Part shown: positions 36,161 to 59,641 of the stretch, piece after piece
How positions within the stretch are numbered: position 1 is the first letter of the stretch
How the letters are laid out: every line of letters starts with the position of its first letter
Source of the DNA: Acidobacteriota bacterium
Lineage (GTDB): Bacteria; Acidobacteriota; UBA890; WLXD01
Direction of reading: 5' to 3'
DNA: 64,000 bases
Assembly (NCBI GenBank): GCA_965205505.1
Contig: CBDBHB010000009.1
Location: forward strand, 2,016,001 to 2,080,000
The notes under the pieces: model-generated
Database searches by the model: none
What the model saw: the letters and a program-made list of their open reading frames with translations, nothing else
Told to the model about the DNA's origin: nothing
Position numbers and translations under genes: made by a program

Positions 36161-36179
36161 ACCCTGCCTCCGGAGCGCC

Positions 36180-38913: not shown

Positions 38914-40247
38914 TGGTCGGCAAGACGCTCGGCCACTACGAGATCCTCGCCCCGCTAGGTGAAGGCGGGATGGGCCAGGTGTATCGAGCACGCGATACGA
39001 CGCTGGATCGTGATGTCGCTATCAAGGTGCTGCCCGAGGATTTCGCCAGCGACGCGGGTCGGTTGGCGCGCTTCGAGCGCGAAGCAAAGCTGCTCGCTTC
39101 GCTGAGCCATCCCAACATCGCCACGATCTTCGGCTTCGAGGAATCGGATGGGGTGCGCTTCATCGCCATGGAGCTGGTGGAAGGCCAGAGCCTCGCCGAG
39201 CGCATCCAAGCTTCGGGTCGTATCGAGGTCGATGAGGCTCTGGAGATCGCCCGCCGGATCGCACTGGCGCTCGAAGCGGCTCATGAGGCCGGCGTCATCC
39301 ACCGTGACCTCAAGCCTGCCAACGTCCAGGTAGCACCCGATGGCACTGTGAAGGTGCTCGACTTCGGGCTGGCCAAAGCCTACGAAGCGGAAGGCAGTGA
39401 GCCGTCGTCCGACCTGAGCCACTCACCCACGATGATGGCTGCTACTGGCACCGGCGTGATCATGGGGACTGCTCCCTACATGAGCCCGGAGCAGGCGCGG
39501 GGTAAGCTCGTCGATAAGCGAAGCGACATCTGGTCGTTTGGGTGCGTGCTGTACGAGATGCTCGCCGGCAAGCGCGCCTTCGACGGCAGGACCGTCAGCG
39601 ACACGATGGCATCGATCCTCAAAGAGGAGCCGGATTGGACGGCTCTGCCGGAGACGACCTCCGCGATCATTCAGCTTCTGCTGCGGCAGTGCTTAGAGAA
39701 GGACGCTGATCGGCGACTCCACGACATCGCCGATGCGCGTATCGGTATCGTCAACACCATCGCCGATCCAGACGCGGATATCGCTCTGCTGGCTAGCTCT
39801 GTTGAGGCTGCGAAGCCGTCGTGGCGGCAAACCATCCCGACACCTGTGGCAGCCGGCCTTGGCCTCGCCATCGCAACAGCGACATTCCTCGCAGCCTGGG
39901 CCTCGATGGGCCAAGTATCGCCACCGTCAGTACCAACAATGCGCCTGGACGTGACGTTAACCAATCAGGATCTCTACCTCGGTCTTGGGTCAACACCCGT
40001 CTTGTCGCCGGATGGCTCGCACATCGCGTTCGTCACAGGAAACGCTAACGCTCAAAGCCAGCTGCACGTTCGCCTGCTCGCTCAGGCGGAGAGCACTCCC
40101 CTTCGTATCGGCGGTGTCTACGGGCCGTTCTTCTCCCCGGATGGCCAATGGGTGGGCTACTTCGATCTCCAGGAGGGGCTACAGAAAGTCTCTATCAGAG
40201 GCGGCGCACCCGTGCGGACGCCAAGACCGGTGACGGCTCCGGGCTGA
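38913..40247 (+). pseudogene. Second kinase-PD40 paralog, truncated after the first propeller blades
   Basis: Complete kinase domain, TM and two SPDG repeats, then homology ends near 40213. Confidence 0.85.
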
Positions 40248-41670: not shown

Positions 41671-41936
41671 TCCATCCCCTGGCCGGGTGTGTCCGATCGC
41701 CTGCCCTGGCCGTGGCCGGAGCGTCGTGAGCAGAGACGCGATGCGTCTCGGATGCACCCGGGGACTCACCTCAGGCCGACCTGGATAATCTCTAGTACCC
41801 TGCACGGGAACTCTAGCATCGGCCAGCGCTACTGGCGCTCAAGTCCATAACTCTTGACCGAAACTCTGGGGCCCGGGCAGCGTGAAAGCCATTCGCTCCC
41901 AAGTCATCTCAGATTAATCAGGCTTGAGCACTCGCC

Positions 41937-41990
41937 CCCCTCGCAAATCGCCCGGCTGCGCTCTTTCTAGTAGTAGAAGAAATTTGTTCC
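41937..41990 (+). repeat. Direct repeat copy B
   Basis: Matches 40849-40904. Confidence 0.85.
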
Positions 41991-42084
41991 GCTTGGCCAC
42001 GGCTGCGCGCAAGCTCAAACGTGCCGCGGGTCGGGCCCTGCGCGCCAAAGGTAGTGCCCAACATGCTGCTTAGGCGACTTGCCC

Positions 42085-42700
42085 CTTCAGCCCGTGCCGA
42101 GTACGGGGCGCAGTTTCGCACCGACATAGAGTCGTTCGTTTCGCGCGAGGCCGTAGACGGCTCCGTTGTCCCCGGCCGCATTGAGCTGCGGCCGCAGGCA
42201 GGCGTCAGCTACCACGGGTTCCTCGACTTCGCGGGGGGCAGTGGTCAGGACAGCGCGACGCTGGCGGTAGGCCACGCAGAGAAACACGCCGACGAGCGGG
42301 TCGCGGTCCTCGACGCCGTGCGCGAGGTGCGGCCGCCGTTCAGCCCCCGACCCAGGTGTGCGGCGACTTCGCGGCCCTGTTGAAGCGCTACCGCGTCACG
42401 AGGGCAACAGCCGACCGGTTCGCGGGTGACTTCCCGGCCGAGCAGATGCGCGGCCACGGCATCAAGGTGGAGCCGGCCGATAGGGCGAAGTCGGACCTCT
42501 ACAAGGCATTCCTGCCGATGCTGAACAGCGACCAAGTCGAGCTGCTGGACTTGCCGCGGCTGCGTACCCAACTCGCTTCACTGGAACGGCGTGTGGGGCG
42601 GTCTGGGCGCGACAGCATCGACCATCCGGCAAACGGACACGATGATGTAGTCAAACAGCGCGGCCGGCGCGCTCGTGCTTGCTGGAGCACGCGACCGCAT
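42085..42700 (+). pseudogene. Terminase large subunit C-terminal (nuclease) fragment, frameshifted
   Basis: ARAEYGAQFR, DFAGGSGQDS, KSDLY, LERR...DHPANGHDD across two frames. Confidence 0.7.
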
Positions 42701-43124
42701 GCCGCAAGGACTCTTGTTCGTTGGACCGCCTTCTGAGAGTGAGATCGCAGAACTCGATGCGGAGTTGGTTCACCTCAAGAAGGAATTAGGTCTCGCATGA
42801 GCTATCGACAACGCATTCGGGAGCGCCTGGGGCGGCAAGTGTCAGACGAACTGGACGACAAGCCGTCGCCGAACGATGGGCAACACGATCGAGAGGACGA
42901 GGCCGCGCGTAAGCGAGCCGAACTTGAGGTACTGCGACGCATCCGTGAGGTCGGCTATTGGTGGCCCGATGGCTCGTGATTCGCATCTTGGGCGGTGGAC
43001 GCGAACTAGGAGCAGCACCGTTCACGGTTCCTTCGAGGAAGACTGGACGCTCAACGACCAGCCGAAAGGGCCTAGGAGCCGGCGGCCGGTGCGCCGCGAC
43101 TGAGGGCCCAGAGCTTTCGTACCG

Positions 43125-43520
43125 TCAGGTAGTCTGACCCGGAAACGCGTAGTGTCGCTCGCGTCGGTACAGTCCCGGCGCAACGAACATCCAAACCTGG
43201 TAGATGATCACCGGAGACGCGACAAGGAACCCCGACAGCGCGGCGACCTTCAAATAGAGGATGAACGGCTCGGTAAGCGAAAGGTACGCGGGCCGTTCGT
43301 CGCTGGGGAGCAATTCGACAATCGGCCGGGTCAGAAGGCTGTAGATGTCCGCCGCGAACGCCCAGCACACCACCATCCCGATGACGAACGTCACCAAGCT
43401 GACGATGAGGCGTCGGCGGAGCTCGGTCAGGTGACCGAGCAACGTCATTTCCGGTAGTGTCTCGCTCCGGCCAGCTCCCGACTGGTCGGCGGCCATCGTC
43501 GCGCCTTCAGACTCGCTCAC
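43125..43520 (-). pseudogene. tatC: Tat translocase TatC, 3' truncated
   Basis: MTLLGHLTELRRRL, EPF, YQVWMFVAPGLY; ends after about 125 aa. Confidence 0.9.
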
Positions 43521-43561
43521 CGCGCGGTTACTCCGACCACTCGCTCAGTCGGTCCACCCGC

Positions 43562-43777
43562 TCAGTCAGTATCGCGAGATCCCGTCCGCTCGCTGCGGTG
43601 CTCATCGAGCGTGATCTCATCTTCAAGCGAGCGTTTCAGGTCGTTCGAGGCTCGTCGGAACTCACTCAGACCCTTGCCAATCGTGCGTCCCAGCTCCGGC
43701 AGACGCTTCGGGCCGAACACCACGAGCGCGATCACCAGGATGATGAGCAGCTCAGTGCCCCCGATCGAGCCGAACAT
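43562..43777 (-). CDS. tatA: TatA/TatB subunit
   Basis: MFGSIGGTELLIILVIALVVFGPKRLPELGR. Confidence 0.9.
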   Translation of the reverse strand: MFGSIGGTELLIILVIALVVFGPKRLPELGRTIGKGLSEFRRASNDLKRSLEDEITLDEHRSERTGSRDTD

Positions 43778-43879
43778 AATTTCCTCACGACGATTTTTCG
43801 AGACCGGATAGCGACATCATATTGGCCCTTGGGCTGTAGCGACACTCCCATCACGACCGGCGCTCGCGACGCTCGTCGG

Positions 43880-44259
43880 GGCGTTGGTGCATAGCTCCTG
43901 ATCTCAGTGCATCATCGTGGCAAGGTCCCCGATCTGGAGTTGCCACCCATGAAGTACCCGAAACGGAGCCAGTACAAGTACGCGAAGTCTCGATATCGGA
44001 TTCGCAATTGGCCTGAGTACGAGTCGGGCCGGCTACAGCAAGCGCGCCATGGTCGAGAACGCGATCTATCGATACAAGACGATCATCGCCCGAGACATGC
44101 GGAGTCGCACGTTGGTGGGCCAACGCGTGGAAGTGCGACTTGCGTGCAGGATCCTCAATACGATGGCTCGTCTCGGGATGCCCGACAGCTACCGAGTGGC
44201 GTGAACCCCTCTCGGAGGACGGGGAAGCTCCCCTTAGCTCCGAGCCATACACCAACGCC
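43880..44259 (+). mobile_element. Internally deleted IS5-family (IS903-like) element
   Basis: 18-bp inverted repeats GGCGTTGGTGCATAGCTC / GAGCCATACACCAACGCC (16/18); transposase start (YRIRNWPEY) joined to its end (RYKTII...LGMPDSYRV). Confidence 0.85.
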
Positions 44260-44261
44260 AC

Positions 44262-46223
44262 TTAGATCCGCGGGAACCAGCCGTGGCGCATCTGCATGAG
44301 CTCTCCGACCGCGCGGTGCGCCTCGTCGAAGGCGGTCTGGGTGAGATCGATCCCCGAGGCATCGGTGTTGGCGATCGTGATCCGCCCGAAGGGCTGACTG
44401 GCGACCTTCCAGGGCTCCTCGCCGGGAGGCGACTCCGGATCGAACAGCGTGTTGGTCGCCAGGGCGTAGCCGTGCGGCCAGCGGTTCACGGTGATCGCCT
44501 CGATGTCGCGCGCCGGGTCGAAGCCCGCCGGCGACAGCACCCGCGCCATCTGGTCGCGGATCCGTCGTTCGAAGTCCTCGAAGGATGTCTCCAGGAGCGC
44601 TTGTCGCACCGCTCGCATCTGATCCCGAACCGGTGTGCCCGGGGGGATCGGCTCGCCGCGGCGTAGGCCGCGAACCATCGGCTCCCAGGAGAGCACCCCT
44701 CCACCATCCCCCAGCGAGACGACGATCGGGTCGGCGGGCGTGCGCGGTGGATCATAAGTCCCCAGCGTGATCGGTGCGCGAGGGCGGATGGCGCTGTAGA
44801 AAGAACCCGGACACGAAACGGTGGAGACGCCGAGCTCCTCGAATGCCCGCCAGTCGCGCACCAGGACGTTGGTGTACATCTGCACGGCGCGTGCGGCGAG
44901 GCTCAGCGCTTCCTTCTGCTCGGATGGAAGCTCGGGACACAGGTGCGGGATCATGGTGTGGTAGCAGGCCAGCACACAGCCCTTGCCGCGCACCCGGTAG
45001 GCTTTGCCACCGCGGACGTAGGTGATCTCGGTCTCGCGGGAGTCCGAGCTCAAGACCTGCGGTGGATTGCCGACATGCTGCGCGCGGACGGCGGCGCTGT
45101 TGAGCCGCAGACGCACGGGCGAGCGCGGCTCGTCGAGCTTCGAGTAGTCGGTTCGCCGGAGCTCGACGCTCGCCATCGATCCCGCTGGTAGGGCCGCCGG
45201 TATCAACGAGCGCACGATCATCCGCGCGATGTCGGAGTTGCCTGCCGGGAAATAGACGCCGGTGCCGTGGTCCGGGTGGGCCGGTGACTCCGGCGGAACC
45301 TCGAAGCCGAGCCCCTGGAAGCCCGGCAGGCTGCGATAGAGGGCGAACCACGCGCTCGAGGTATCGGCGCCCAAACACCAGACCCCGCCCACCAGCGGCA
45401 GCACGTCCGGATGCACTTGGACGACATCCAGCAGGTAGTCGTAGTAGCTGATGCGTTGCAGCCGTTGGATCTTCTCCTCGCGGGACAGCCCCGGCAGGTA
45501 GTCTCGCGCGTCGTTCCACAGCCGCAGTAGGTCGGCGCGCACCCGCTCGGTGAGCGGCGTGCGGGCGAGGAACTCCTCGGTGGGTCGGCGGACGCTGCCG
45601 GTGACCAGGGCATCCTTGCCGAAGCTCTCCTCGTGGAAGAAGACGGCCGTCTCGAGCCCCATGGACCGGAACATCCCCCGCTGCACGCTGCTGGTCGGAT
45701 GATCGAGCTCGACACCGATGTCCTCGAGCATCTCCCGCGCCGCCAGCGGATAGCGGTCGGGCTGCACCATGCGGACCGTGCCGCCGGTCGCCAGCAGCAC
45801 CTCGCCGTCGTGCTCGAACTCGTTGCGCCTGGCGTGGCCGCCAAAGTCGTCGTGATTCTCGAGGATCAGCACGCGGGCGTCAGGGCTCGTCGCCTTGCGG
45901 AAGAAGTACGCCGCCGCCAGACCGCTGAGGCCGGCGCCGACGACGATCAGGTCGTAGGTCTCGCCGGTGTCCTCGGCGTCATCCCACGTGACGCCGTCGC
46001 GGGCGGCGTGGGCCGCCTCGAACGAGCCGGGGTGCGATCCCCGCATGCCGGTTCGGGCCGGCGGATAGTAGTCGGCCGCCCGCTCGGGAGCATAGGCCTG
46101 GCCCATGCCCCCGGCGCGCAGTCTGGCCGGCAACGCCATCGCACCACCGACCGTGACGCTCACGCCGTTGACGAAGTCGCGCCGGGTGATGTTGCGGTTC
46201 ATCCCGAGGCCGCGGTCACTCAT
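44262..46223 (-). CDS. Spermidine dehydrogenase (SpdH)-like FAD oxidoreductase with Tat signal, copy 1
   Basis: ITRRDF, GMRGSHPGSFE, VVGAGLSG, DDFGGHARRNEF, TVNRWPHGY. Confidence 0.88.
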   Translation of the reverse strand: MSDRGLGMNRNITRRDFVNGVSVTVGGAMALPARLRAGGMGQAYAPERAADYYPPARTGMRGSHPGSFEAAHAARDGVTWDDAEDTGETYDLIVVGAGLSGLAAAYFFRKATSPDARVLILENHDDFGGHARRNEFEHDGEVLLATGGTVRMVQPDRYPLAAREMLEDIGVELDHPTSSVQRGMFRSMGLETAVFFHEESFGKDALVTGSVRRPTEEFLARTPLTERVRADLLRLWNDARDYLPGLSREEKIQRLQRISYYDYLLDVVQVHPDVLPLVGGVWCLGADTSSAWFALYRSLPGFQGLGFEVPPESPAHPDHGTGVYFPAGNSDIARMIVRSLIPAALPAGSMASVELRRTDYSKLDEPRSPVRLRLNSAAVRAQHVGNPPQVLSSDSRETEITYVRGGKAYRVRGKGCVLACYHTMIPHLCPELPSEQKEALSLAARAVQMYTNVLVRDWRAFEELGVSTVSCPGSFYSAIRPRAPITLGTYDPPRTPADPIVVSLGDGGGVLSWEPMVRGLRRGEPIPPGTPVRDQMRAVRQALLETSFEDFERRIRDQMARVLSPAGFDPARDIEAITVNRWPHGYALATNTLFDPESPPGEEPWKVASQPFGRITIANTDASGIDLTQTAFDEAHRAVGELMQMRHGWFPRI

Positions 46224-46230
46224 GGCCTTC

Positions 46231-47844
46231 TCAAGCGTGCGGTGCGATCTCGGTCATGTACCACTTGATAAATCCGGCCGGTCCCCCTTCTCGCCGGGCG
46301 TACGGTTGTCCGCCGGCGTGGTTGTAGCGGCTGTTCTGGATGCCGTGCTGGTTGTTCTCGACGATCCATCGATCCTCTCGGTAGGTGACGTCCCAGAGCT
46401 CCATCATGCGCTCCACGTCCACCTCTGCATCCTTGGCGTCGCCCTTGACCAGCCAGAAGATCTCGACATCGGTCGACTGTATGTCTCGTGGGGTGAAGCG
46501 GGCGACCGCGATGTGGTCGTCGTAGGCGGCGAAGAACGACGTCGAGAAACCGGTCGTTGCGCCGCGCCGCTGATGCGTCCACTTGTCGAGGATGAGCGGC
46601 GCCACCGGCTTGCCATCGAGGCTGCCGGTGACGAAGCCGGGTGAGAGATGGCGGGTCACCGTGTAGCTGCTCTGGCTCGCTTGCGGCGACTGCGTCTGCT
46701 CGAGCTGATCGCTGCCATGACAGAGGTGGCACGGCTCGCCCTCGCCGGCCTCCGGCTGTTGCTGCTCCGGGTGCTCGTGGCTCGCCACTTCCTCGTGGAG
46801 GTTGGCGATTTGCTCGGGGCTCATCACGTGCGCTTGCTGCCACCACTGGACCATCACCAACGACTTGTGCGCCGGCTCGCAGTGATAGCACTCCTCGAAG
46901 TTCTCGACCGCCATCTTCCAGTTCGCCTTCGTCGGGTACTGCTTGCGAGCTACTACTTTCAGATTCGCGGTTCCATAGAACTCGCAGACCCCTCGCCACC
47001 TGGTCACGAAGTCGTCGAAGCCCGCTGGTTCTTCGTCGGCCAGGTTGACGAAGATGAAGCCTTCGACCATCTGCACGTGGGCCGGGTGCAGGCCGTGCTG
47101 GTCTTGTTCGAACCCCTCTGGCATCCCGGTCGGCGCCGAGATCAGCTTGCCGTCGAGATCGTAGGTCCAGGCGTGATACGGGCAACGAAAGACCGCTGTG
47201 TTACCGCTCGGTCCTTGTTGGGCTACCGACAGCCGCGAGTCCACCGGCTTGCCGTCGAGCGTCGCCTCGCCCGGCAGGTCCTTGTCGAAACCGTGCAGGC
47301 AGAGCCGCGATCCGCGGTGTCGGCAGACGTTGTGGTAGGCCTTCACGGCACCGTCGTTGGCGCGCGTGATGATGAGGCTGCCGCCACGGCCGAACTCGAA
47401 GACGAAGTAGTCGCCCGGATTGGGAATGCGGCTCTCATGGTCGGCCATGAACCAGAAATGATCTTGCAGGAAGCGCTCTTCGTTCAGCCAGTGCTTCTCG
47501 TCGAGGTAGTACTCGGCCGGAATCGTGGTTCCTTCTTGCCACCCGCCCGGATAGCTGGGGGCCTCGCCGGGTGGCGACATGATGTCCTCCAGCAGCACAT
47601 CGCGACCGTCAAAATCCTCGCCGCCATACGTCACTTCGGGCGGCATCGTGATCGGACCCCGAGGTGCGGCTGCCGCGGCTTTTGCTGCTTCCGACGTTCC
47701 CTTCTCCGCTAACGTTTCACCACGCAGCACCTTGGGAAGCGCCACCGCGGCCGCTCCCGCCGCAACCGAAGTCTTGGCGAAGTCGCGACGGCTGACTTTC
47801 TTGCGCTCGGTGTCCTTGTTGTTCTTGCTGTCTCTCTTACTCAT
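46231..47844 (-). CDS. Rieske non-heme iron oxygenase alpha subunit (GbcA/choline monooxygenase-like) with Tat signal, copy 1
   Basis: SRRDF, CRHRG...CPYH, NWK..VENFEECYHC..AH; extra CHLCH. Confidence 0.88.
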   Translation of the reverse strand: MSKRDSKNNKDTERKKVSRRDFAKTSVAAGAAAVALPKVLRGETLAEKGTSEAAKAAAAAPRGPITMPPEVTYGGEDFDGRDVLLEDIMSPPGEAPSYPGGWQEGTTIPAEYYLDEKHWLNEERFLQDHFWFMADHESRIPNPGDYFVFEFGRGGSLIITRANDGAVKAYHNVCRHRGSRLCLHGFDKDLPGEATLDGKPVDSRLSVAQQGPSGNTAVFRCPYHAWTYDLDGKLISAPTGMPEGFEQDQHGLHPAHVQMVEGFIFVNLADEEPAGFDDFVTRWRGVCEFYGTANLKVVARKQYPTKANWKMAVENFEECYHCEPAHKSLVMVQWWQQAHVMSPEQIANLHEEVASHEHPEQQQPEAGEGEPCHLCHGSDQLEQTQSPQASQSSYTVTRHLSPGFVTGSLDGKPVAPLILDKWTHQRRGATTGFSTSFFAAYDDHIAVARFTPRDIQSTDVEIFWLVKGDAKDAEVDVERMMELWDVTYREDRWIVENNQHGIQNSRYNHAGGQPYARREGGPAGFIKWYMTEIAPHA

Positions 47845-48029
47845 GCCACCCTCGTGCGGCTAGCGGACAGGACGTCTAGGCCCCTGTATGCAAGCACAGG
47901 TGAAATGCCTTTACCATGGGGTCTGTCAAGTCAACGACATGTTTGTCAGATTCCCGAGGCAACGAACCTCTGTCGCCGCCAGCCCCGCGTCGATCGCTCA
48001 CTACGTGGCTCGTTTTCGGGGTCCCCTGA

Positions 48030-48365
48030 GAGGCCGATCTCCCGGAACTTGGCGGCCAGCCACTCGGCGCTCTCCGCATCGGCGGACGTGCCGGTGATCG
48101 GGCCCCAGAACTGCGGATGCCCCCGGTCTCGATACCGCCTTGATATCTCGGCCTGCTCCACGACGTGCTGATGGAGACGCCGGCCGTCGATGTCCGCGTA
48201 CGCCTCGGCGCCGGACGGTAGCGGCCATCGCAGCAACGAATCCTGCAGGTCGTCCAGCGTCGTCGGAGTACTCTCTGATGGCCGGGTACCGGCCTGTCCC
48301 GAGCACGCCGCTGCTGACACTATGAAGGCCACGAACGTCGCCGTTACCCGCGAAACGTGCCCATC
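48030..48365 (-). pseudogene. N-terminal fragment of a lipoprotein (M28 peptidase-like)
   Basis: AAAC lipobox; ISRRYRD..HPQFWG; truncated. Confidence 0.4.
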
Positions 48366-48479
48366 GCACCCAATTCACGTCGGGTCACTGTTGTGCACAC
48401 GGAGCCCTCCCGCGATGCGGCGCGACGTGTGGGTGTCCTAATCGTGTGGCTGGATTGTTCAGTTGCTATCGATGCTGAC

Positions 48480-50444
48480 TCAGATCCGCGGGAACCACCC
48501 ATGGCGCATCTGCACGAGCTCTCCGACCGCGCGGTGCGCCTCGTCGAAGGCGGTCTGGGTGAGATCGATCCCCGAGGCATCGGTGTTGGCGATCGTGATC
48601 CGCCCGAAGGGCTGACTGGCGACCTTCCAGGGCTCCTCGCCGGGAGGCGACTCCGGATCGAACAGCGTGTTGGTCGCCAGGGCGTAGCCGTGCGGCCAGC
48701 GGTTCACGGTGATCGCCTCGATGTCGCGCGCCGGGTCGAAGCCCGCCGGCGACAGCACCCGCGCCATCTGGTCGCGGATCCGTCGTTCGAAGTCCTCAAA
48801 GGATGTCTCCAGGAGCGCTTGTCGCACCGCTCGCATCTGATCCCGAACCGGTGTGCCCGGGGGGATCGGCTCGCCGCGGCGTAGGCCGCGAACCATCGGT
48901 TCCCAGGAGAGCACCCCTCCGCCAGCCCCCAGCGAGACGACGATCGGGTCGGCGGGCGTGCGCGGTGGATCATAAGTCCCCAGCGTGATCGGTGCGCGAG
49001 GGCGGATGGCGCTGTAGAACGAGCCCGGACACGAAACGCTGGAGACGCCGAGCTCCTCGAGTGCCCGCCAGTCGCGCACCAGGACGTTGGTGGACATATT
49101 CACGGCGCGTGCGGCGAGGCTCAGCGCTTCCTTCTGCTCGGATGGAAGCTCGGGACACAGGTGCGGGATCATGGTGTGGTAGCAGGCCAACACACAGCCC
49201 TTGCCGCGCACCCGGTAGGCCTTGCCACCGCGGACGTAGGTGATCTCGGTCTCGCGGGAGTCCGAGCTCAAGACCTGCGGTGGATCGCCGACATGCTGCG
49301 CGCGGACGGCGGCGCTGTTGAGCCGCAGACGCACGGGCTGGTGCGGCTCGTCAAGCTTCGAGTAGTTGGTTCGCCGGAGCTCGACGCTCGCCATCGATCC
49401 CGCTGGTAGGGCCGCCGGGATCAACGAGCGCACGATCATCCGCGCGATGTCGGAGTTGCCGGCCGGGAAGTAGACGTCGGTGGTGTCGTGGTCCGGGTGG
49501 GCCGGTGACTCCGGCGGAACCTCGAAGCCGAGCCCCTGGAAGCCCGGCAGGCCGCGATAGAGGGCGAACCACGCGCTCGAGGTATCGGCGCCCAGACACC
49601 AGACCCCACCAACCAGCGGCAGCACGTCCGGATGCACTTGGACGACATCCAGCAGGTAGTCGCGGTAGCTGATGCGTTGAAGCCGCTGGATCTTCTCCGC
49701 CCTGGACAGCCCCGGCAGATAGTCGCGCCGGTCGTTCCAGAGCCGCAGCAGGTCCCGGCGTATCGGCTCAGTGAGCGGCGTCTTGGCGAGGAACTCCTCC
49801 GTGGGTCGCCGGACGCTGCCGTTGACCAGGACGTCCTTCCCGAAGCTCTCCTTGCCAAAGAAAACGGCTGGCTCCAGCCCCAACTCCCTGAACATCCCTC
49901 GATGGACGTTGTTGGTAGGATGATCCAGCTCGACACCGATATCCTGGAGCATCTCCCGCGCCGCCAGCGGGTAGCGCTCCGGCGTCACCATGTAAGACGT
50001 GCCGCCGGTCGCCAGCAGCACCTCGCCGTCGTGCTCGAACTCGTTGCGCCTGGCGTGGCCGCCAAAGTCGTCGTGATTCTCGAGGATCAGCACGCGGGCG
50101 TCAGGGCTCGTCGCCTTGCGGAAGAAGTACGCCGCCGCCAGACCGCTGAGGCCGGCGCCGACGACGATCAGGTCGTAGGTCTCGCCGGTGTCCTCGGCGT
50201 CATCCCACGTGACGCCGTCGCGGGCGGCGTGGGCCGCCTCGAACGAACCGGGGTGCGAGCCGCGCATACCGGTACGGGCCGGCGGGTAATAGTCGGTTGC
50301 CTTCTCGGGGGCGTGGGCCTGGCTGACGCCTGCGGCGCGAAGCCTGGCCGGCAAGGCCATCGCACCGCCGACAGCGACGCTCACGCCGTTGACGAAGTCG
50401 CGCCGGGTGATATTGCGGTCCATTCCGAGTCCACGATCGCGCAT
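48480..50444 (-). CDS. SpdH-like FAD oxidoreductase with Tat signal, copy 2
   Basis: Highly similar to 44262-46223. Confidence 0.88.
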   Translation of the reverse strand: MRDRGLGMDRNITRRDFVNGVSVAVGGAMALPARLRAAGVSQAHAPEKATDYYPPARTGMRGSHPGSFEAAHAARDGVTWDDAEDTGETYDLIVVGAGLSGLAAAYFFRKATSPDARVLILENHDDFGGHARRNEFEHDGEVLLATGGTSYMVTPERYPLAAREMLQDIGVELDHPTNNVHRGMFRELGLEPAVFFGKESFGKDVLVNGSVRRPTEEFLAKTPLTEPIRRDLLRLWNDRRDYLPGLSRAEKIQRLQRISYRDYLLDVVQVHPDVLPLVGGVWCLGADTSSAWFALYRGLPGFQGLGFEVPPESPAHPDHDTTDVYFPAGNSDIARMIVRSLIPAALPAGSMASVELRRTNYSKLDEPHQPVRLRLNSAAVRAQHVGDPPQVLSSDSRETEITYVRGGKAYRVRGKGCVLACYHTMIPHLCPELPSEQKEALSLAARAVNMSTNVLVRDWRALEELGVSSVSCPGSFYSAIRPRAPITLGTYDPPRTPADPIVVSLGAGGGVLSWEPMVRGLRRGEPIPPGTPVRDQMRAVRQALLETSFEDFERRIRDQMARVLSPAGFDPARDIEAITVNRWPHGYALATNTLFDPESPPGEEPWKVASQPFGRITIANTDASGIDLTQTAFDEAHRAVGELVQMRHGWFPRI

Positions 50445-50528
50445 ACCTATTCCTCGAGTCAGCGCGCCCCTTCGGTTGTGAGCTTCAGAGCACGCCTGCG
50501 GTGATGGACCAAGCGAACGGAGGCCGGC

Positions 50529-52061
50529 TTACGCGTGCGTTGCGATCTCGGTCATGTACCACTTGATGAATCCGGCCGGTCCCCCTTCTCGCGTGGCGTA
50601 CGGTTGCCCGCCGCCGTAGTTGTAGCGACTGTTCTGGATGCCGTGCTGGTTGTTCTCGACGATCCATAGATCCTCTCGGTAGGTGACGTCCCAGAGCTCC
50701 ATCATGCGCTCCACGTCCACCTCTGCATCCTTGGCGTCGCCCTTGACCAGCCAGAAGATCTCGACATCGGTCGACTGTATGTCTCGTGGGGTGAAGCGGG
50801 CAACCGCGATGTGGTCGTCGTAGGCGGCGAAGAACGACGTCGAGAAACCGGTCGTTGCGCCGCGCCGCTGATGCGTCCACTCGTCGAGGATGAGCGGCGC
50901 CACCGGCTTGCCATCGAGGCTGCCGGTGACGAAGCCGGGTGAGAGGTGGCGGTTCATCGTGTAGCTGCTCTGGTTCGCGTTGTCCTGTTGCCGCTCCAAG
51001 TGCTCGTGGCTCACCAGTTCCTGCTCGAGGTTGGCGCGTTGCTCGGGGGTCATCACGTGCGCTTGCTGCCACCACTGGACCATCACCAACGACTTGTGCG
51101 CCGGCTCGCAGTGATAGCACTCCTGGAAGTTCTCGACCGCCAGCTTCCAGTTCGCCTTCGTCGGGTACTGCTTGCGAGCTACTACTTTCAGATTCGCGGT
51201 TCCATAGAACTTGGAGACCCCTCGCCACCTGGTCACGAAGTCGTCGAAGCCCGCTGGTTCTTCGTCGGCCAGGTTGACGAAGATGAAGCCTTCGACCATC
51301 TGCACGTGGGCCGGGTGCAGGCCGTGCTGGTCTTGTTCGAACCCCTCCGGCATCCCGGTCGGCAGCGAGATCAGCTTGCCGTCGAGATCGTAGGTCCAGG
51401 AGTGATACGGGCAACGAAAGACCGCTGTGTTACCGCTCGGTCCCTGTTGGGCTACCGACAGCCGCGAGTCCACCGGCTTGCCGTCGAGCGTCGCCTCGCC
51501 CGGCAGGTCCTTGTCGAAACCGTGCAGGCAGAGCCGCGATCCGCGGTGTCGGCAGACGTTGTGGTAGGCCTTCACGGCACCGTCGTTGGCGCGCGCGATG
51601 ATGAGGCTGCCGCCACGGCCGAACTCGAAGACGAAGTAGTCGCCCGGACTGGGAATGCGGCTCTCATGGTCGGCCATGAACCAGAAATGATCTTGCAGGA
51701 AGCGCTCTTCGTTCAGCCAGTGCTTCTCGTCGAGGTAGTACTCGGCCGGAATCGTGGTTCCTTCTTGCCACCCGCCCGGATAGCTGGGGGCCTCGCCGGG
51801 TGGCGACATGATGTCCTCCAGCAGCACATCGCGACCGTCAAAATCCTCGCCGCCATACGTCACTTCGGGCGGCATCGTGATCGGACCCCGAGGTGCGGCT
51901 GCCGCGGCTTTTGCTGCTTCCGACGTTCCCTTCTCCGCTAACGTTTCACTACGCAGCGCCTTGGGAAGCGCCACCGCAGCTGCTCCTGCCGCAACCGAAG
52001 TCTTGGCGAAGTCACGACGGCTGACCTTCTTTCGCTTGTTCTCCTTTTTGTTCTTGCTCAT
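50529..52061 (-). CDS. Rieske oxygenase alpha subunit with Tat signal, copy 2
   Basis: Highly similar to 46231-47844; lacks the CHLCH insertion. Confidence 0.88.
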   Translation of the reverse strand: MSKNKKENKRKKVSRRDFAKTSVAAGAAAVALPKALRSETLAEKGTSEAAKAAAAAPRGPITMPPEVTYGGEDFDGRDVLLEDIMSPPGEAPSYPGGWQEGTTIPAEYYLDEKHWLNEERFLQDHFWFMADHESRIPSPGDYFVFEFGRGGSLIIARANDGAVKAYHNVCRHRGSRLCLHGFDKDLPGEATLDGKPVDSRLSVAQQGPSGNTAVFRCPYHSWTYDLDGKLISLPTGMPEGFEQDQHGLHPAHVQMVEGFIFVNLADEEPAGFDDFVTRWRGVSKFYGTANLKVVARKQYPTKANWKLAVENFQECYHCEPAHKSLVMVQWWQQAHVMTPEQRANLEQELVSHEHLERQQDNANQSSYTMNRHLSPGFVTGSLDGKPVAPLILDEWTHQRRGATTGFSTSFFAAYDDHIAVARFTPRDIQSTDVEIFWLVKGDAKDAEVDVERMMELWDVTYREDLWIVENNQHGIQNSRYNYGGGQPYATREGGPAGFIKWYMTEIATHA

Positions 52062-52117
52062 ACCATCCTCCGGCAGCCAAGACGTTCAGATACCTGTATA
52101 CAAGCATAGATGAAGCG

Positions 52118-52146
52118 CCATTACCATGGGGTCTGTCAAAAGTCAA
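52118..52146 (-). promoter_or_regulatory. Putative sigma70 promoter of the Rieske operon (related copy near 47910-47936)
   Basis: Minus strand reads TTGACT-N17-TAATGG; the region is conserved between the duplicates. Confidence 0.45.
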
Positions 52147-52197
52147 CGAACCTTCTGGCAGAGGTTTTCGGGGTTTGGGTCAATTTGGGTCAGGCCG

Positions 52198-52260
52198 TTG
52201 ACAGAGGTTGCTGTGCGGTGCTAGTAACACCTTCTGAAGGTGCTAGTATCACCTTCTGAA
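52198..52260 (+). promoter_or_regulatory. Promoter with tandem 22-bp operator-like repeat
   Basis: TTGACA at 52198; GGTGCTAGTA(A/T)CACCTTCTGAA at 52217-52238 and 52239-52260. Confidence 0.6.
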
Positions 52261-52326
52261 GCATTAGTCAATTCAATGTCGGGCGACGCCGTTGCCCCGG
52301 GTGACGAGTTGCCCAGGAGGTGTGGA

Positions 52327-55209
52327 ATGCGCGCCAAGCTTGCCGTCTTGACTGTTGCCATGCTCCTGATACTCCCCGCGCAGGCGATGGCGCAGGGTGA
52401 GCGGACGCAGGGGGATATCGCCGGAGTGGTTCGGGACGTGGATGGTGCGGGGCTGCCCGGCGCCACCGTCACCCTCGAGGGAGACAACCTCATCCAGGTA
52501 TCTGTCTCGAAGGTAAGCGACGTCTCGGGCAACTTCCGGTTTCGTAATCTCAGGCCGGGAATGTACATCGTCACGGTCTCGCTCACCGGGTTCCAAACGA
52601 TAGCCTACAACGTCCCGGTGAACGTCGGCACGGCGTCAACCGTGATTGCGGAACTGGAGCTGGCGGGGGTCGCAGAGACGGTCACAGTCGTCTCCGAGAC
52701 GCCGTTGATCGACATAGAGTCGGCATCGCTTACGACGTCATACGGCGCGGATCTGCTGGAAAACGTTCCGGTGGCGCGTGAGTTCGCCAACATGACCGAC
52801 TTCGCCGCTGGTTTCGCCGACAAGGGAGCCTATGGCGCCGGCGGCAACCACTCCGAGGGCACTAGCGTGCATCGGCAAGGTGCCGCAACCAACGGCTACC
52901 GGCTCAACGGCGTTGACATCAACGAGCTGGACTGGGGTCTCACCTTTGTCAACCCGAACGTGGAGACGATCGCCGAGATCCAGATTGTCGGTATCGGCGC
53001 CAGCGCCGAGTACAGCCACTTCACTGGCGCGATGGTCAATATTGTGACCAAGGGGGGCACCAACGCGTTTCATGGCTCGGGCTCTTACTACTGGCAGAAC
53101 GGCTCTCTGAGAACCGACAACTCGCGCGGCATCGTGGATCTCGAGCGCGGAAAGTTCTCCTACGACCGCGAGGTTGCCGCCTCTGTCGGTGGCCCGATTG
53201 CGCGCAACAAGCTGCTGTTCTTTGCCGGTGTCTCCCGTCAAGAAAAGCGCGATTCGATTGCCGCCGACTCGTTCTGGGAGAACGGTGGAATCGCCGTCGA
53301 TGATGCCCAGCAGGGTAACGCTAGGTGGGCACTGCACGGCAAGCTGGATTTCTTGGTCAACGACACCAACACGTTCGGGTTCATGATCAACCAGGATCCG
53401 GGCGGCCAGTCGAACATCGACCTGCGACCAGGTTCGCCGCTCGACGTCGCCATGGATACCGAGTACAGCAGCACGACCGCGTTGTTCACCTGGCAATCCC
53501 AACTGGGCGACAACACCTTCACCGATCTCCGCCTCGCATACAATAGGGCGGACTTCTTGCGCATCCCGCTCGTGTGCTGCGACATCCCGGATTACTGGTT
53601 CAACAATTCGCGGAGGCTCACCCGTGGCTTCGTGGAGGACGAGGACAACGCCTCGAAAAATGTCACGGCAACGGTGACCCAGTACGTCGACGACTTCCTG
53701 GGCGCCGCGCATGACGTCAAGGTCGGTATCGACTACAACGACCTTTGGTCCACCTGGATTGCTAAGATTACCGGTAGAGGGGCCATGTATGCCTATGGCT
53801 CCGGTAACGTATATGGGCGTATCTCCAACCGTGGCCTCGAGGCCCGAATGCTACGCCACTCGGCCTTTATCCAGGATAACGCTACCGCTAGCGACAACCT
53901 CACCCTCAACCTCGGGCTGCGCTTTGACCGGACGACCGGTTACGACATGAAGGGTGGGGTGGTTGGGGCTCAGGTAGACAGGTACGACAACTTGGCGCCA
54001 CGCCTTGGTGCAACCTTGGATGTGAGCGGTGATGGCCGTGCCGTGTTCCATGGCAGCTGGGGGCGCTACTTCGAGAAGATCTCCATCGGACACGTCTCGA
54101 GAGCCACCGGCGGCGCGTTCACGGACCCATACGAACCCAACCAGAGGTTCTTCTTCGCAATACCTGACGGTATGTTCCCTGCCGACTACGACCCCCTCAA
54201 CCCGACCGACGTGCAAGTGTTAGCGCTGCAAGACGCTGTCTTCCAACTCGCGAACCGGACTTCGTTCAACGCCGATATCTTTCCGATCACCCCCGGCTTG
54301 AAGTCGACGCACACGGATGTCTTCAATTTCGGATTCGAGTATGAATTAGTCAGGGACTGGGTCGTGGGTCTCGACTACATCCGCAAAGATGACAAAAACA
54401 TGTTCATCTACAACGACATCATTGACCATGTGTTTACGCCCTTCGAATACACCAGCCCGGTGGTGCCCGGATTCCTCGATACGCCGACGACGCAGACGCT
54501 CTACTCGAAACCCAGCGGCGCTATCGAGAACGTCTTCGATAACAGCGACTACTATGTGCGGTGGCACAACATCGTGACGCTGTCGCTGGACCGACGGCGA
54601 ACGGGTTCCGGCCTCAACTTCAGCACCTCGCTCACCTACCAGAACAACGAGGGAAGGATAGAGAATGGCGACGGCCAGACCATCTGGGGTAGGGGCTTCG
54701 ACGAAGAAGACAACCCGAACTTCAACGGCCACCCCTTCTCCGAGTCGGGTCCGTTGCGCTTCAGCAGGACGTGGAGCTGGAAGATACTGGGCAACTACAG
54801 GCTGCCCGGAGACATCCTCTTGGGTATGTACTGGAACTTGGCGTCGGGTCGGCCGTGGAACCTCAAGGTCAGGCACGGATCCAGGGGGATTCCCCAATTG
54901 CTCAACGCCGCCTACGGCAGCACAAACATCGAGAAGGTTCGCAGCAGGCGGTGGGATTCGCATAAGCAGCTCGATCTGCGGCTCTCGAAGTCCTTTAATT
55001 TTGGGAATGGCCGGTTCGAGTTGATGGTCGACGGGTTCAACATGCTCAACGACTTCTCCCCGACCAGCGTCAGAGATCGAATCGACCGAACGTTCAGCCT
55101 TGAGCGCGACGCCGAAGGCAACAGACTCTCCAGCGTCGGGCTGCCCCGCGACTCTACACGTCTGCTGCCCGGGCGGCAGTTTCGGCTCGGGGCACGACTT
55201 TCCTTCTGA
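52327..55209 (+). CDS. TonB-dependent receptor (Oar-like, carboxypeptidase regulatory domain)
   Basis: LPGATVT, VNIVTKGGTNAFHG, LNLGLRFD, APRLG, C-terminal RLSF. Confidence 0.92.
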   Translation: MRAKLAVLTVAMLLILPAQAMAQGERTQGDIAGVVRDVDGAGLPGATVTLEGDNLIQVSVSKVSDVSGNFRFRNLRPGMYIVTVSLTGFQTIAYNVPVNVGTASTVIAELELAGVAETVTVVSETPLIDIESASLTTSYGADLLENVPVAREFANMTDFAAGFADKGAYGAGGNHSEGTSVHRQGAATNGYRLNGVDINELDWGLTFVNPNVETIAEIQIVGIGASAEYSHFTGAMVNIVTKGGTNAFHGSGSYYWQNGSLRTDNSRGIVDLERGKFSYDREVAASVGGPIARNKLLFFAGVSRQEKRDSIAADSFWENGGIAVDDAQQGNARWALHGKLDFLVNDTNTFGFMINQDPGGQSNIDLRPGSPLDVAMDTEYSSTTALFTWQSQLGDNTFTDLRLAYNRADFLRIPLVCCDIPDYWFNNSRRLTRGFVEDEDNASKNVTATVTQYVDDFLGAAHDVKVGIDYNDLWSTWIAKITGRGAMYAYGSGNVYGRISNRGLEARMLRHSAFIQDNATASDNLTLNLGLRFDRTTGYDMKGGVVGAQVDRYDNLAPRLGATLDVSGDGRAVFHGSWGRYFEKISIGHVSRATGGAFTDPYEPNQRFFFAIPDGMFPADYDPLNPTDVQVLALQDAVFQLANRTSFNADIFPITPGLKSTHTDVFNFGFEYELVRDWVVGLDYIRKDDKNMFIYNDIIDHVFTPFEYTSPVVPGFLDTPTTQTLYSKPSGAIENVFDNSDYYVRWHNIVTLSLDRRRTGSGLNFSTSLTYQNNEGRIENGDGQTIWGRGFDEEDNPNFNGHPFSESGPLRFSRTWSWKILGNYRLPGDILLGMYWNLASGRPWNLKVRHGSRGIPQLLNAAYGSTNIEKVRSRRWDSHKQLDLRLSKSFNFGNGRFELMVDGFNMLNDFSPTSVRDRIDRTFSLERDAEGNRLSSVGLPRDSTRLLPGRQFRLGARLSF

Positions 55210-55319
55210 TTCGCTGACACGCAACGACAAAGTGGGGTGCGGTGATCCAGGGCCGGGAGCCGGCCCTGCGGATCGACGATGACCTCGAGGGCCATCGCTG
55301 ACTGAGCCGCACCCTGCTG

Positions 55320-55386
55320 GTGCTGTCGTTCGATCTGCTGGCGCAGCTCGTCAGTGCTGTCTCTCGATCCGCTGGCGCAGCTCGTC
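55320..55386. repeat. Imperfect 33-bp tandem duplication of the TPR gene end
   Basis: 55320-55352 vs 55354-55386 (DELRQQIERQH / DELRQRIERQH). Confidence 0.75.
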
Positions 55387-56583
55387 GATGCGCTGTGCAT
55401 CCCGCGCCCGGCCCAGCGCACGGTAGGCGGCGGCGAGAACCTCGTACGTCTCCGCACGCTCCGGCTGCAGCTCGCGCGCTCGCTCCAGTGCCGTGATCGC
55501 ACCTTCGTGCTGGCCGAGTGCTGCCCTGCACAGGCCGATGTTGAAGTGGATCAATGCGTCGTCGGGCGCCACCAAGACCGCGGTCTCGAAGAGCTCCAGC
55601 GCCTCGGCCGGATGGTCTCGGCGGAAGTAGTAGAGCCCCTGCGCGTTCAGCATGCCGATCTGCATGGCGCGATTCTGCTGGAGCTCGCGCTGGCGCTCGG
55701 CCGTGGTCATCCCCTGGAAGCGCTGCATCAGCTGTCGGGCCTGCTCCCGCTGACCGCTGTCGCGAAGAGCCAGCGCCAGGTTGTAGTGGGCCAGTTTCAG
55801 CCCGGCGTCGAGCTTGATTGCCTCGCGCCCGTGCGTCACCGCACCCTCCAGGTCCCCGGCCTTGTACAGAACGGAACCGAGCAGCTGGTGCGCCTGCGCG
55901 GCGCAGCAGGCCTGCATCCCGAGGACACGTCGGAGCAGCTCCTCGGCGGCCGAGAGCTCCTGGCGATCGATGTACACCTCGGCAAGGCGCACGTATGCAA
56001 GCGCTTGGCGCGGGCGCAGCCGAATCATCGCCTCGAGCTGCTCCACCGCGACGTCGAGATCGCCCTCTGCCCACGCCAGCATGCCGAGATCGAAGCGCGC
56101 TTCCACGGCGCCGACCATCGTGGCCGCCTCGAAGGCGGCTCGCGCCTCCGACCCCATGCCCATCTGGAGCAGCGTACGACCCCTCAGCAGCTCGAGGTTC
56201 GGTTTCCCGCCACCCCCTGCCTGACACTCGTCGACGAGCGCGATCGTCTTGTCATGGAGGGTGAGACGGCGGTAGGCGCGCCCCAGCGCCAGGCAGGTTT
56301 CGATACTCTCGGGACGCAGCTCGTGGGCGCGCTCGTACGCCGTCGTCGCCCTGAGAAGCGACTCGAAGTCGCCGTTCTGCAGCGCCGCCGCACCGGCCTG
56401 CATCGCCTCGTCGAACTCCTCCGCTGGCGTCTGCGCGGTCTCCGTTTCCTGTCCGGTTACCGGGCGCGCATCCAACCCACCCGGCCAGGCCGACGCCTCC
56501 GGAGTCGAGCCGCGGAGGATCGGAGCGGCCAGGAAAGAGCAGACGACGACGTGCAAGCTGATTCGCACACCCGTCGCGCGCAT
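55351..56583 (-). CDS. Secreted TPR protein
   Basis: Signal peptide and multiple TPRs (AHYNLALAL). Confidence 0.85.
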   Translation of the reverse strand: MRATGVRISLHVVVCSFLAAPILRGSTPEASAWPGGLDARPVTGQETETAQTPAEEFDEAMQAGAAALQNGDFESLLRATTAYERAHELRPESIETCLALGRAYRRLTLHDKTIALVDECQAGGGGKPNLELLRGRTLLQMGMGSEARAAFEAATMVGAVEARFDLGMLAWAEGDLDVAVEQLEAMIRLRPRQALAYVRLAEVYIDRQELSAAEELLRRVLGMQACCAAQAHQLLGSVLYKAGDLEGAVTHGREAIKLDAGLKLAHYNLALALRDSGQREQARQLMQRFQGMTTAERQRELQQNRAMQIGMLNAQGLYYFRRDHPAEALELFETAVLVAPDDALIHFNIGLCRAALGQHEGAITALERARELQPERAETYEVLAAAYRALGRARDAQRIDELRQRIERQH

Positions 56584-56585
56584 GG

Positions 56586-59024: not shown

Positions 59025-59113
59025 GGAGCGCGGGGATCGACCGCGCGGTGCGAGCCACCATCCGTGGGCCGGCCGCGGCGCGCCCTGCGAGAATCCTCCC
59101 AGATATAGTGTCG

Positions 59114-59150
59114 CCTGAAGCGTATCGCCGGAGCGTGCGAGATCCAACGG
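59114..59150 (-). promoter_or_regulatory. Dispersed promoter-like repeat copy 9
   Basis: TGAAGCGTATCGCCGGAGCGTGCGAGATCCAACGG, 34/35 identical to copy 4. Confidence 0.72.
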
Positions 59151-59406
59151 AGGCACCGTCAGGAGCCTCCCCAGCGTCAACCGGCCTGGCCCCCAATTCG
59201 GGAAGGACCAATCCCGTGCGGGGTGCCGACGCGCGTTAGGGGCCGTCCTGGGGACATGCACCAGCGCTCTACCCCACCGCCTGACGGTCGCGCTCGTCAG
59301 CCGTGAGTGGTTACCCCGATACCCGCCCTGGCCAACCCAAGAGCGTGCCGCTACGGACGAGCGAAATCGAAGGACGCTAGGGCTTGTCGAGTCTCGGCTG
59401 CCGGCG

Positions 59407-59525: not shown

Positions 59526-59641
59526 AGTGAAGGCTACCCGGAGGAGACTCGTCGGCTCCTCGAAGGGAGCGCCAGCGGCTCCGTGTCCACCTGGAACCGG
59601 GCGGCCGAGCCGGTCACGAACAACGCGGCTAGCGCCGCGTG

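Follow-up and report, generated by a model that had tools for sequence, protein, structure and literature searches.

We analysed a 64,000-nucleotide stretch of DNA (the window, G000:C9:2016001-2080000) from the genome of a bacterium of the phylum Acidobacteriota (G000; 5.98 Mb in 9 contigs). Its minus strand carries two tandem gene pairs, which by their open reading frame (ORF) positions lie head to tail in the order R2, F2, R1, F1. Each R gene encodes the alpha subunit of a Rieske oxygenase, and each F gene encodes a flavoprotein of the type of SpdH, the spermidine (polyamine) dehydrogenase of Pseudomonas aeruginosa. We propose that these pairs are duplicate two-gene units that serve to break down amines in the periplasm and in which the oxygenase would be reduced by haem proteins, here by F directly or by way of a cytochrome c. 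We assign this reading a probability of about 45%. Because the oxygenase appears to be exported, has no classical redox partner encoded nearby, and in other lineages usually neighbors a cytochrome c gene, we read it as an enzyme that is reduced by haem proteins.

Oxygenases with twin-arginine signals

R1 and R2 match the Pfam models Rieske, with 48.9 and 48.6 bits against a cut-off of 20.3, and Ring_hydroxyl_A, with 87.3 and 95.5 bits against one of 24.9. The solved structures nearest to R2 are 3n0q (E 2.8e-44), Stc2 (3vca, E 4e-39; also 4qup), and CntA (6y8j, E 5.7e-28). GbcA, Stc2, and CntA act on glycine betaine, stachydrine, and carnitine, respectively, as N-demethylating or C-N-cleaving oxygenases. 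The best NCBIfam model is that of the glycine betaine monooxygenase GbcA (NF058607, an equivalog model), with scores of 220.5 bits for R1 and 223.3 bits for R2. These scores are far below the cut-off of 670, and R is therefore a relative of GbcA and not a GbcA equivalog. In an alignment of 28 family members, reaching down to 51% identity, the ligands of the Rieske [2Fe-2S] cluster (C170, H172, C217, and H220; CxH...CxxH) are invariant, as are E314, H317, H322, and D464, which cover the iron site and the bridging acidic residue. An Hx4H motif contains the two histidines, and we take D464, by homology and from general knowledge of the class, to be a ligand of the mononuclear iron. An ENFxECYHCxxxH motif and a later ED motif are also kept.

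R2 begins with a twin-arginine signal (approximately residues 1-37) and a disordered linker (to approximately residue 58), followed by a family-specific N-terminal extension (PPEVxYGG) and the Rieske and catalytic domains. In an AlphaFold2 (AF2) model of R2, the mean confidence score (pLDDT) is 76.7; residues 1-58 score below 50, and the remainder is folded as a Rieske oxygenase.

The preliminary description of this DNA had pointed to an SRRDF motif plus a hydrophobic stretch at the start of both Rieske alpha subunits, and to TRRDF in their SpdH-like partners. Translations of the four genes confirm both, and the motif is conserved in both families. The N-termini of R1 and R2 read ..KKVSRRDFAKTSVAAGAAAVALPK.., and those of F1 and F2 read ..NITRRDFVNGVSV(T/A)VGGAMALPARLRA... 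Both follow the consensus for substrates of Tat (twin-arginine translocation), (S/T)RRxF(L/A)K and a moderately hydrophobic (h-) region, with SRRDFAK plus TSVAAGAAAVALP in R and TRRDFVN plus GVSVAVGGAMALP in F. We refer to the twin-arginine-bearing oxygenase family that includes R1 and R2 as "Tat-RO." Oxygenase residues R15, R16, and F18 are invariant among the 28 family members, and S14, D17, and A19 are nearly so. Among 30 aligned flavoprotein homologues, R14 and R15 do not vary. By eye, the motif is present in 114 of the 120 best oxygenase homologues and in 118 of the 120 best flavoprotein homologues, and the others look N-terminally cut; a strict filter retains 102 and 112 of the 120, respectively. 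The SRRDFA motif and h-region are kept across Tat-RO proteins that have diverged to approximately 45% identity.

In the source genome, nearly all N-termini of the 17 Tat-RO and 28 SpdH-like proteins (partial genes included in both counts) are of the form RRxF. By a heuristic ranking, 29 of the 47 strongest Tat-type N-termini in that genome belong to these two families. The genome also has two full-length tatC genes, at C8:163450 and C9:2687698 (221 and 166.7 bits). Because the motif is conserved across both families, R and F are very probably exported by Tat.

Tat-RO is a distinct family, set apart from cytoplasmic GbcA/Stc2/CntA-like relatives by the SRRDFA signal, the N-terminal extension, and an insertion in the Rieske domain. 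A scan of metagenome contigs for relatives of R2 yielded 80 loci (L numbers). Among these, relatives with at least 43% identity carry the N-terminal extension and signal, and approximately 70 loci with at most 37% identity start at about R2 residue 95-108 and lack a signal. The Tat-motif detector used here made three false calls among relatives with at most 33% identity (L042, L071, and L089), all from upstream read-through. When 41 Tat-type and 8 non-Tat rows were placed on a quick maximum-likelihood tree, the two types fell on either side of a branch whose SH-aLRT support is 100%.

The spacing between the CxH and CxxH ligand boxes also differs. All eight non-Tat rows have 17 residues between the boxes and most Tat-RO proteins have 34; the window's clade and its closest sister rows have 42-44, with 44 in R2 versus the canonical 17. 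Tat-RO proteins with a spacing of 34 hold a conserved ..D.RLSV.Q.. insertion. Relative to GbcA, Stc2, and CntA, with which it shares the architecture of Rieske and Ring_hydroxyl_A domains, Tat-RO thus bears a Tat signal, an N-terminal extension some 40 residues long, and an insertion of 17-27 residues between the Rieske boxes. The region between the cluster-binding loops is where redox partners approach in Rieske oxygenases. The AF2 model of R2 has low confidence at this insertion.

In a census of 401 sampled Acidobacteriota genomes from 227 genera, the Tat-RO family was found in eight genomes and three genera, including all five sampled genomes of the window's genus. A search in the phylum of G401, a metagenome-assembled genome titled Candidatus Binatia, gave only the Acidobacteriota genomes already counted.

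Haem proteins as neighbors of the oxygenase

The absence of a ferredoxin or NAD(P)H reductase from the window, as noted in the preliminary description, was borne out by whole-genome scans. The window contains no match to PF00175 (two in the genome), PF00111 (13), or PF07992 (34), although other ferredoxin types were not scanned. Among the 24 matches to PF00355 in the genome, R1 and R2 themselves aside, no small Rieske ferredoxin lies in the window. Neither of the two PF00175 matches is near any R gene. Elsewhere, the genome encodes two small Rieske ferredoxin-like proteins without signals. A regular-expression search for a Fer2 motif plus RxYS within 3.5 kb found such an ORF at 0 of 39 Tat-RO loci and 1 of 50 non-Tat loci, a search too insensitive to contrast the two groups. 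No NAD(P)H-type partner is found near the oxygenase, and in this respect Tat-RO differs from GbcA and CntA, which have GbcB/CntB-type reductases.

Outside the window's genus, the commonest partner of Tat-RO is a small cytochrome c (gene C). Gene C adjoins the oxygenase gene at 10 loci outside the genus, coming right after it in L012, L015, L017, L021, L023, L024, L028, L104, and L105 and being convergent with it in L020. Genomes in which it directly follows the oxygenase gene are G038, G347, and G254. The encoded proteins have 150-180 residues, one CxxCH motif, and a lipoprotein-type signal (lipobox LALGC or LAIGC), and they match the Pfam families Cytochrome_CBB3 and Cytochrom_C. When the surroundings of the oxygenase genes in G038 and G347 are compared, the cytochrome c gene is all that they have in common. 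Of 14 candidate frames in the G038 flanks, only those for isocitrate lyase and malate synthase have matches, and both are on the opposite strand. An apparent 1469-residue fusion of the G038 oxygenase was rejected, as the frame is a read-through in GC-rich DNA and the gene starts at its own NRRDF signal. Cytochromes of c type mature outside the cytoplasm; thus, the cytochrome c partner independently points to the periplasm.

Loci that combine all three genes have the orders F-R-C (L021) and F-R-R-C (L105). L105 (G254:C182:1-6954) consists of five genes in the same direction: F, R, R, C, and a gene of the homocysteine S-methyltransferase family. The last of these is a hint that substrates may be methylated or of the betaine type.

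In the window's clade, F is found downstream of R. F1 and F2 match the Pfam family NAD_binding_8 (44-48 bits), F2 also matches Amino_oxidase, and both have an N-terminal FAD-binding fold. F2 aligns with P. aeruginosa SpdH (7d9j) over residues 11-643 (E 1.7e-121), and the N-terminal RRDF motif is part of the alignment. The F2 motifs FEAAH (His72) and NRWPHGY (His585) align with SpdH His54 and His562. All 30 flavoprotein homologues have H585, and at least 90% of them have H72. According to the available part of one report (PMC12564564), SpdH contains FAD and a surface-exposed haem b with His54 and His562 as ligands, and the haem is reduced by substrate-reduced FAD. The same part of the report describes cytochrome c, ferricyanide, and dyes as in-vitro acceptors, and direct electron transfer on an electrode with a catalytic onset of -0.14 V versus Ag/AgCl (PMC12564564). 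Because both haem b ligands are kept, F appears to be a dehydrogenase built to pass electrons to an outside partner.

The 28 SpdH-like genes of the source genome are paralogues at 36-93% identity, and this range in a single genome makes it likely that F proteins act on many different substrates. The sister genomes G069, G118, G130, and G275 have 28-36 SpdH-like matches each. At locus L076, a non-Tat relative of the oxygenase (29% identity) is divergent from a Tat-signal flavoprotein of a distant SpdH-like subfamily (30% identity), which by pattern search lacks the FExxH and NRWxHG motifs.

The R-F pairing is real and not universal. R followed by F is kept in L009, L010, L011, and L019 (76-83% identity) and in G069 (98%), with gaps of 12-88 bp. 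In the window itself, the gap between stop and start codons is 84 bp from R2 to F2 and 7 bp from R1 to F1. The pair is present three times as a unit in G118 and once in each of G130 and G275. All eight rows of the window's clade have F downstream of R. On the quick tree, the R-F label needs three changes, which puts the origins of the pairing at three or more, and the pairing recurs in unrelated branches. F also occurs upstream of R, in L021 (with an F of a distant subfamily, 29% identity), in L105 (from G254, which belongs to another family of the phylum), and at C9:3097734. In the source genome, 4 of the 17 Tat-RO genes have F directly downstream, whereas approximately 0.08 would be expected given 28 F genes among about 5880 called ORFs. 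Arrays in this genome include F-F-F at C9:3103790-3109982 and R-R-R-F at C8:1145335-1151540.

The source genome also encodes five clear paralogues of the partner cytochrome c and a weaker sixth. One F gene (C9:3072960-3074906) is followed by a gene of this cytochrome family (L106:5004-5567). The region around it (L106, G000:C9:3072684-3079238) carries on one strand the SpdH-like gene, the lipoprotein cytochrome c gene, genes for two beta-lactamase-fold proteins, and a gene for a PhyH-family dioxygenase.

Proposed electron supply to a probable periplasmic oxygenase

Under the reading that we favor, R and F would fold and load their cofactors in the cytoplasm and would then be exported by Tat. 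The periplasmic oxygenase would not be served by an NAD(P)H reductase and would instead be reduced by haem proteins. In most lineages, the reductant would be the small lipoprotein cytochrome c whose gene comes directly after that of the oxygenase, a position that F, the flavocytochrome, occupies in the window's clade. Electrons would pass from an amine to FAD, to the surface haem b of F, and then to the Rieske cluster of R, either directly or via a cytochrome c paralogue. From the Rieske cluster they would reach the mononuclear iron and finally O2. The analysis demonstrates how the genes are arranged, that the cofactor ligands are intact and the export signals conserved, that the same neighbors recur, and that classical partners are absent nearby; we infer export, the substrates, and every electron-transfer step, including that from F to R.

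Amine substrates are suggested by the kinship of R to betaine, stachydrine, and carnitine oxygenases and of F to a polyamine dehydrogenase. The TonB-dependent receptor gene divergent from R2 suggests uptake across the outer membrane, and the substrates would probably enter by this neighboring receptor. Other R/F clusters have as neighbors M28 and S15 peptidases, amidohydrolases, pyrroloquinoline quinone (PQQ) dehydrogenases, and beta-lactamase-fold proteins. These neighbors fit with the periplasmic breakdown of nitrogen-rich organic matter. The PQQ-dependent dehydrogenase genes are located at G000:C8:1153967-1156120, C9:3094264-3096219, and C9:3115583-3117628, and one of the products has a C-terminal cytochrome c domain.

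Several observations weigh against this reading. Thirteen of the 17 Tat-RO genes in the source genome have no F directly downstream, and for most of its 28 F genes there is no adjacent R. In another genus, the genomes G038 (100% complete) and G347 (92%) encode Tat-RO and lack any SpdH homologue at E <= 1e-20; therefore, F cannot be the general donor of the family. Moreover, no partner-family cytochrome c gene adjoins any R gene in the source genome, and none is present in the window. Paralogue families that spread by segmental duplication can yield adjacency without function, and the window's clade consists of closely related rows. The tree itself comes from a quick search, with SH-aLRT as its only support. 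No typical AxA cleavage site follows the h-region in R1, R2, F1, or F2.

The redox potentials are a further difficulty. In oxygenases, the Rieske cluster usually has a potential of approximately -0.1 to -0.15 V versus the standard hydrogen electrode, and the Tat-RO ligand boxes, CRHRG and CPYH, are of the low-potential type. Taken together with the catalytic onset given above for SpdH, these customary potentials would make the step from haem to Rieske cluster uphill, unless the cluster of this family is tuned. A co-fold of R2 residues 59-270 (of R2, the input held only the Rieske domain and N-terminal extension) with F2 residues 50-654, haem, and FAD came out under the mark in both runs, with no controls folded, and weighs on neither side of the question of binding.

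The proposals of the preliminary description fare unevenly in this light. It had suggested a periplasmic amine-oxidizing module with the dehydrogenase as donor. The export motifs and the haem ligands of F favor such a module, whereas F is not a family-wide partner and cytochrome c is commoner outside the genus. Likewise, conservation of the R-F pairing holds for orthologues in several genomes, and does not extend to most Tat-RO genes of the source genome or to G038 and G347.

The chief alternative, which we consider possible and somewhat unlikely, is that R and F catalyze successive steps of one periplasmic amine pathway and exchange no electrons. R would then be reduced by a general periplasmic pool of cytochrome c that receives its electrons from the respiratory chain or other dehydrogenases, and F would pass its electrons via cytochrome c to a terminal oxidase. 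Such separate routes would agree with cytochrome c being the usual neighbor of R outside the genus, with the Tat-RO genes of G038 and G347 that have no F, and with the one F gene that is followed by cytochrome c and has no R nearby. PQQ dehydrogenases, one with a cytochrome c domain, near several R/F clusters also agree with separate routes. In addition, the available part of the SpdH report has this enzyme working alone in P. aeruginosa and reducing cytochrome c in vitro (PMC12564564). However, in the window's clade F stands exactly in the place of cytochrome c, and genes for the latter are absent from the vicinity. That R and F came to lie side by side repeatedly and independently is compatible with both the separate routes and the direct supply of electrons by F.

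It is improbable that R and F are neighbors by expansion only, having been brought together by segmental duplication within islands of periplasmic hydrolase and dehydrogenase genes and having no joint function. The sheer number of Tat-RO and SpdH-like genes, many of which stand alone or form F-F arrays, could be explained in this manner, as could the peptidase, amidohydrolase, PQQ dehydrogenase, and beta-lactamase-fold genes in the same clusters and the fragment of a third gene that was carried along in the window's duplication. Expansion alone does not readily account for an order of R then F, with gaps of 7-88 bp, that is kept at 76-98% protein identity in several genomes. Nor does it readily account for a pair copied as a unit three times in G118, or for R and F being adjacent also in G254, which belongs to another family of the phylum, and in L021, where F is of a distant subfamily (29% identity).

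Finally, we consider it very improbable that R is not a periplasmic oxygenase, being either not exported or not a working exported enzyme, and is served by a cytoplasmic reductase from elsewhere in the genome: the lack of an AxA site, the two signal-less ferredoxin-like proteins, and a reductase that could be among the 34 PF07992 matches would permit this, but SRRDFA and the h-region are invariant to approximately 45% identity, the entire extension is missing from cytoplasmic relatives, a c-type cytochrome lipoprotein serves as operon partner elsewhere, and all metal ligands are intact.

If haem proteins do reduce the oxygenase, a broader claim can be made, which we regard as doubtful. Tat-RO may represent a new NAD(P)H-free periplasmic Rieske system, for which most lineages would use a dedicated lipoprotein cytochrome c as the donor and the window's clade an SpdH-type flavocytochrome b. 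In such a system, the oxidation of an amine C-N bond by F would pay for the oxygenolytic cleavage of another C-N bond by R. For example, R could cleave a quaternary amine that F cannot attack, and breakdown could proceed outside the cytoplasm by using only O2.

The enzyme classes involved are known; what is new is the predicted location, the family-defining insertions, and the haem-protein partners. To our knowledge, every characterized Rieske oxygenase resides in the cytoplasm or a plastid and obtains electrons from NAD(P)H via a reductase, in some cases joined by a ferredoxin. The known enzymes of the GbcA/Stc2/CntA type are cytoplasmic and NAD(P)H dependent. A full-text literature search, which covered few subscription journals, found no Tat-exported or periplasmic Rieske oxygenase and no SpdH paired with a Rieske protein.

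Related themes exist among other exported proteins. The Rieske subunit of the bc1 complex and the small subunit of arsenite oxidase are Rieske [2Fe-2S] proteins that are assembled in the cytoplasm and exported by Tat. They are electron carriers with high-potential clusters and no oxygenase domain. In contrast, R has a full catalytic domain, a 2-His-1-carboxylate site, and ligand boxes of the low-potential type. Type II PQQ alcohol dehydrogenase is a periplasmic enzyme that carries its own haem and delivers electrons to a soluble acceptor and on to the respiratory chain. F resembles such quinohaemoprotein and flavocytochrome dehydrogenases in being a predicted periplasmic dehydrogenase with a built-in haem and, presumably, a soluble acceptor. 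In the literature searched, no description was found of an oxygenase driven by electrons from a dehydrogenase of the quinohaemoprotein type. P. aeruginosa SpdH (PDB 7D9F-7D9J) and F2 share full-length homology, the RRDF motif, the haem b histidine ligands, and the FAD-binding fold. SpdH differs in standing alone, and the available part of the report names no physiological acceptor for it (PMC12564564), whereas F2 is one of 28 paralogues and lies behind a Rieske oxygenase gene in a two-gene unit.

If the proposed electron supply is correct, it would be a new scheme for the well-studied class of Rieske oxygenases and would make oxygenase chemistry on nitrogen compounds possible in the periplasm. 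It would also help to explain the presence of 17 oxygenases and 28 SpdH-like dehydrogenases in one genus of soil Acidobacteriota. Furthermore, it would provide a physiological electron acceptor for SpdH-type enzymes, for which the available part of the report describes only in-vitro acceptors (PMC12564564).

The locus, its duplication, and its surroundings

Coordinates of the two gene pairs and adjoining features, numbered from the first nucleotide of the window.
Feature	Position	Strand	Basis
R2, Tat-exported (predicted) Rieske non-haem-iron oxygenase alpha subunit, 510 aa	50529..52061	-	Translation, Pfam
F2, Tat-exported (predicted) SpdH-type flavocytochrome b amine dehydrogenase, 654 aa	48480..50444	-	Translation, SpdH alignment
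R1, second oxygenase copy, 537 aa	46231..47844	-	Translation, Pfam
F1, second flavocytochrome copy, 653 aa	44262..46223	-	Translation, Pfam
Rieske ligand boxes of R2 (CRH...CPYH)	51402..51554	-	Box spacing comparison
Divergent intergenic region, R2 to TonB receptor	52062..52239	.	Alignment, consensus scan
TonB-dependent outer-membrane receptor, 989 aa	52240..55209	+	Pfam OMP_b-brl_4, CarboxypepD_reg, TonB_dep_Rec_b-barrel
Gene fragment between the two pairs, 128 codons	47946..48332	-	83% identity over 102 aa to C8:1172923-1173228
tatA, intact, 71 aa	43562..43777	-	Pfam TatA_B_E, 70.1 bits
tatC fragment, N-terminal half only, 131 aa	43125..43520	-	PF00902 positions 2-97 of 208

The two pairs appear to result from a duplication that can be followed by comparison with G069, which has a single R-F pair. 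Positions 48478-55368 of the window are 98.5% identical to G069 DNA, and the second copy (43453-47829) is 95-97% identical. Approximately 110 bp adjoining R2 upstream are repeated in an alignment upstream of R1 (about 47845-47953). R1 and R2 are 93.3% identical over 510 aligned codons, and F1 and F2 are also 93.3% identical. The ratio of nonsynonymous to synonymous divergence (dN/dS) is 0.78 for R1/R2, with a dS of 0.047, and 0.28 for F1/F2, with a dS of 0.146. Either gene conversion across the oxygenase genes or a relaxation of constraint on one of the copies could explain this unequal divergence of R and F. The gene fragment between the pairs has no Pfam match. A whole relative of it adjoins a paralogous R-F pair on contig C8; thus, the second pair seems to have arrived with a piece of a former neighbor gene.

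R1 differs from R2 by a private insertion of 27 residues in a variable loop, which is absent from all other rows of the 28-sequence alignment. The insertion contains CHLCH, a CxxCH motif for haem c attachment (window 46717-46731, minus strand), and no other member of the family in the alignment has this motif. In a crude non-overlapping gene set, CxxCH occurs in the window in R1 and in one ORF of 77 residues; the full ORF list has two more. The motif in R1 may be due to chance, and it is odd given that cytochrome c is the usual neighbor of the family.

There is a weak sign that the R/F locus is expressed. Contigs from four metatranscriptome runs in two studies lie on parts of R2, R1, F2, tatA, and the TonB receptor gene. 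One of these RNA contigs (837 nt, 12 differences) spans 50294-51132 and thus covers the R2/F2 junction. Carry-over of DNA in the libraries is possible, and parts of the window that lack RNA contigs were given no weight.

The preliminary description had placed tatA and tatC on one side of the pairs and a divergent TonB receptor on the other. The receptor and an intact tatA are present as described, and tatC is only a fragment. The receptor gene is 178 bp from R2. The receptor is 98% identical in G069, and paralogues with 65-69% identity are near other R/F clusters. It was not found in the available flanks of L009, L010, L011, and L019, and its conservation is limited to the genus. A consensus scan gave no promoter match in the region between R2 and the receptor gene. 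The scan found five terminator-like sites versus 3.9 expected. The sequence TTGACT-17-TAATGG upstream of R2 had been read by eye as a promoter and was rejected, because it does not pass the scan (0 promoters).

On the other side, the similarity to G069 stops at window position 43453, inside tatC, which indicates that the tatC-side flank varies between species of the genus. Beyond the cut tatC (window 41900-44260) there are only short ORFs, none with a Pfam match. Two candidates that had been picked out by eye, a phage terminase remnant at 42021-42736 and an insertion sequence remnant at 43907-44299, have no Pfam support; the latter has partial copies elsewhere in the source genome.

Farther out, three Ser/Thr protein kinase genes lie in a row at 34752-40247, and two of the kinases (36180-38822 and 38913-40247) have WD40-like PD40 beta-propeller repeats. 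On the minus strand beyond the receptor gene, positions 55351-60805 encode a tetratricopeptide repeat (TPR) protein, then a sulfatase fused to TPR repeats (891 residues), and also a molybdopterin oxidoreductase of the sulfite oxidase type (Oxidored_molyb plus Mo-co_dimer).

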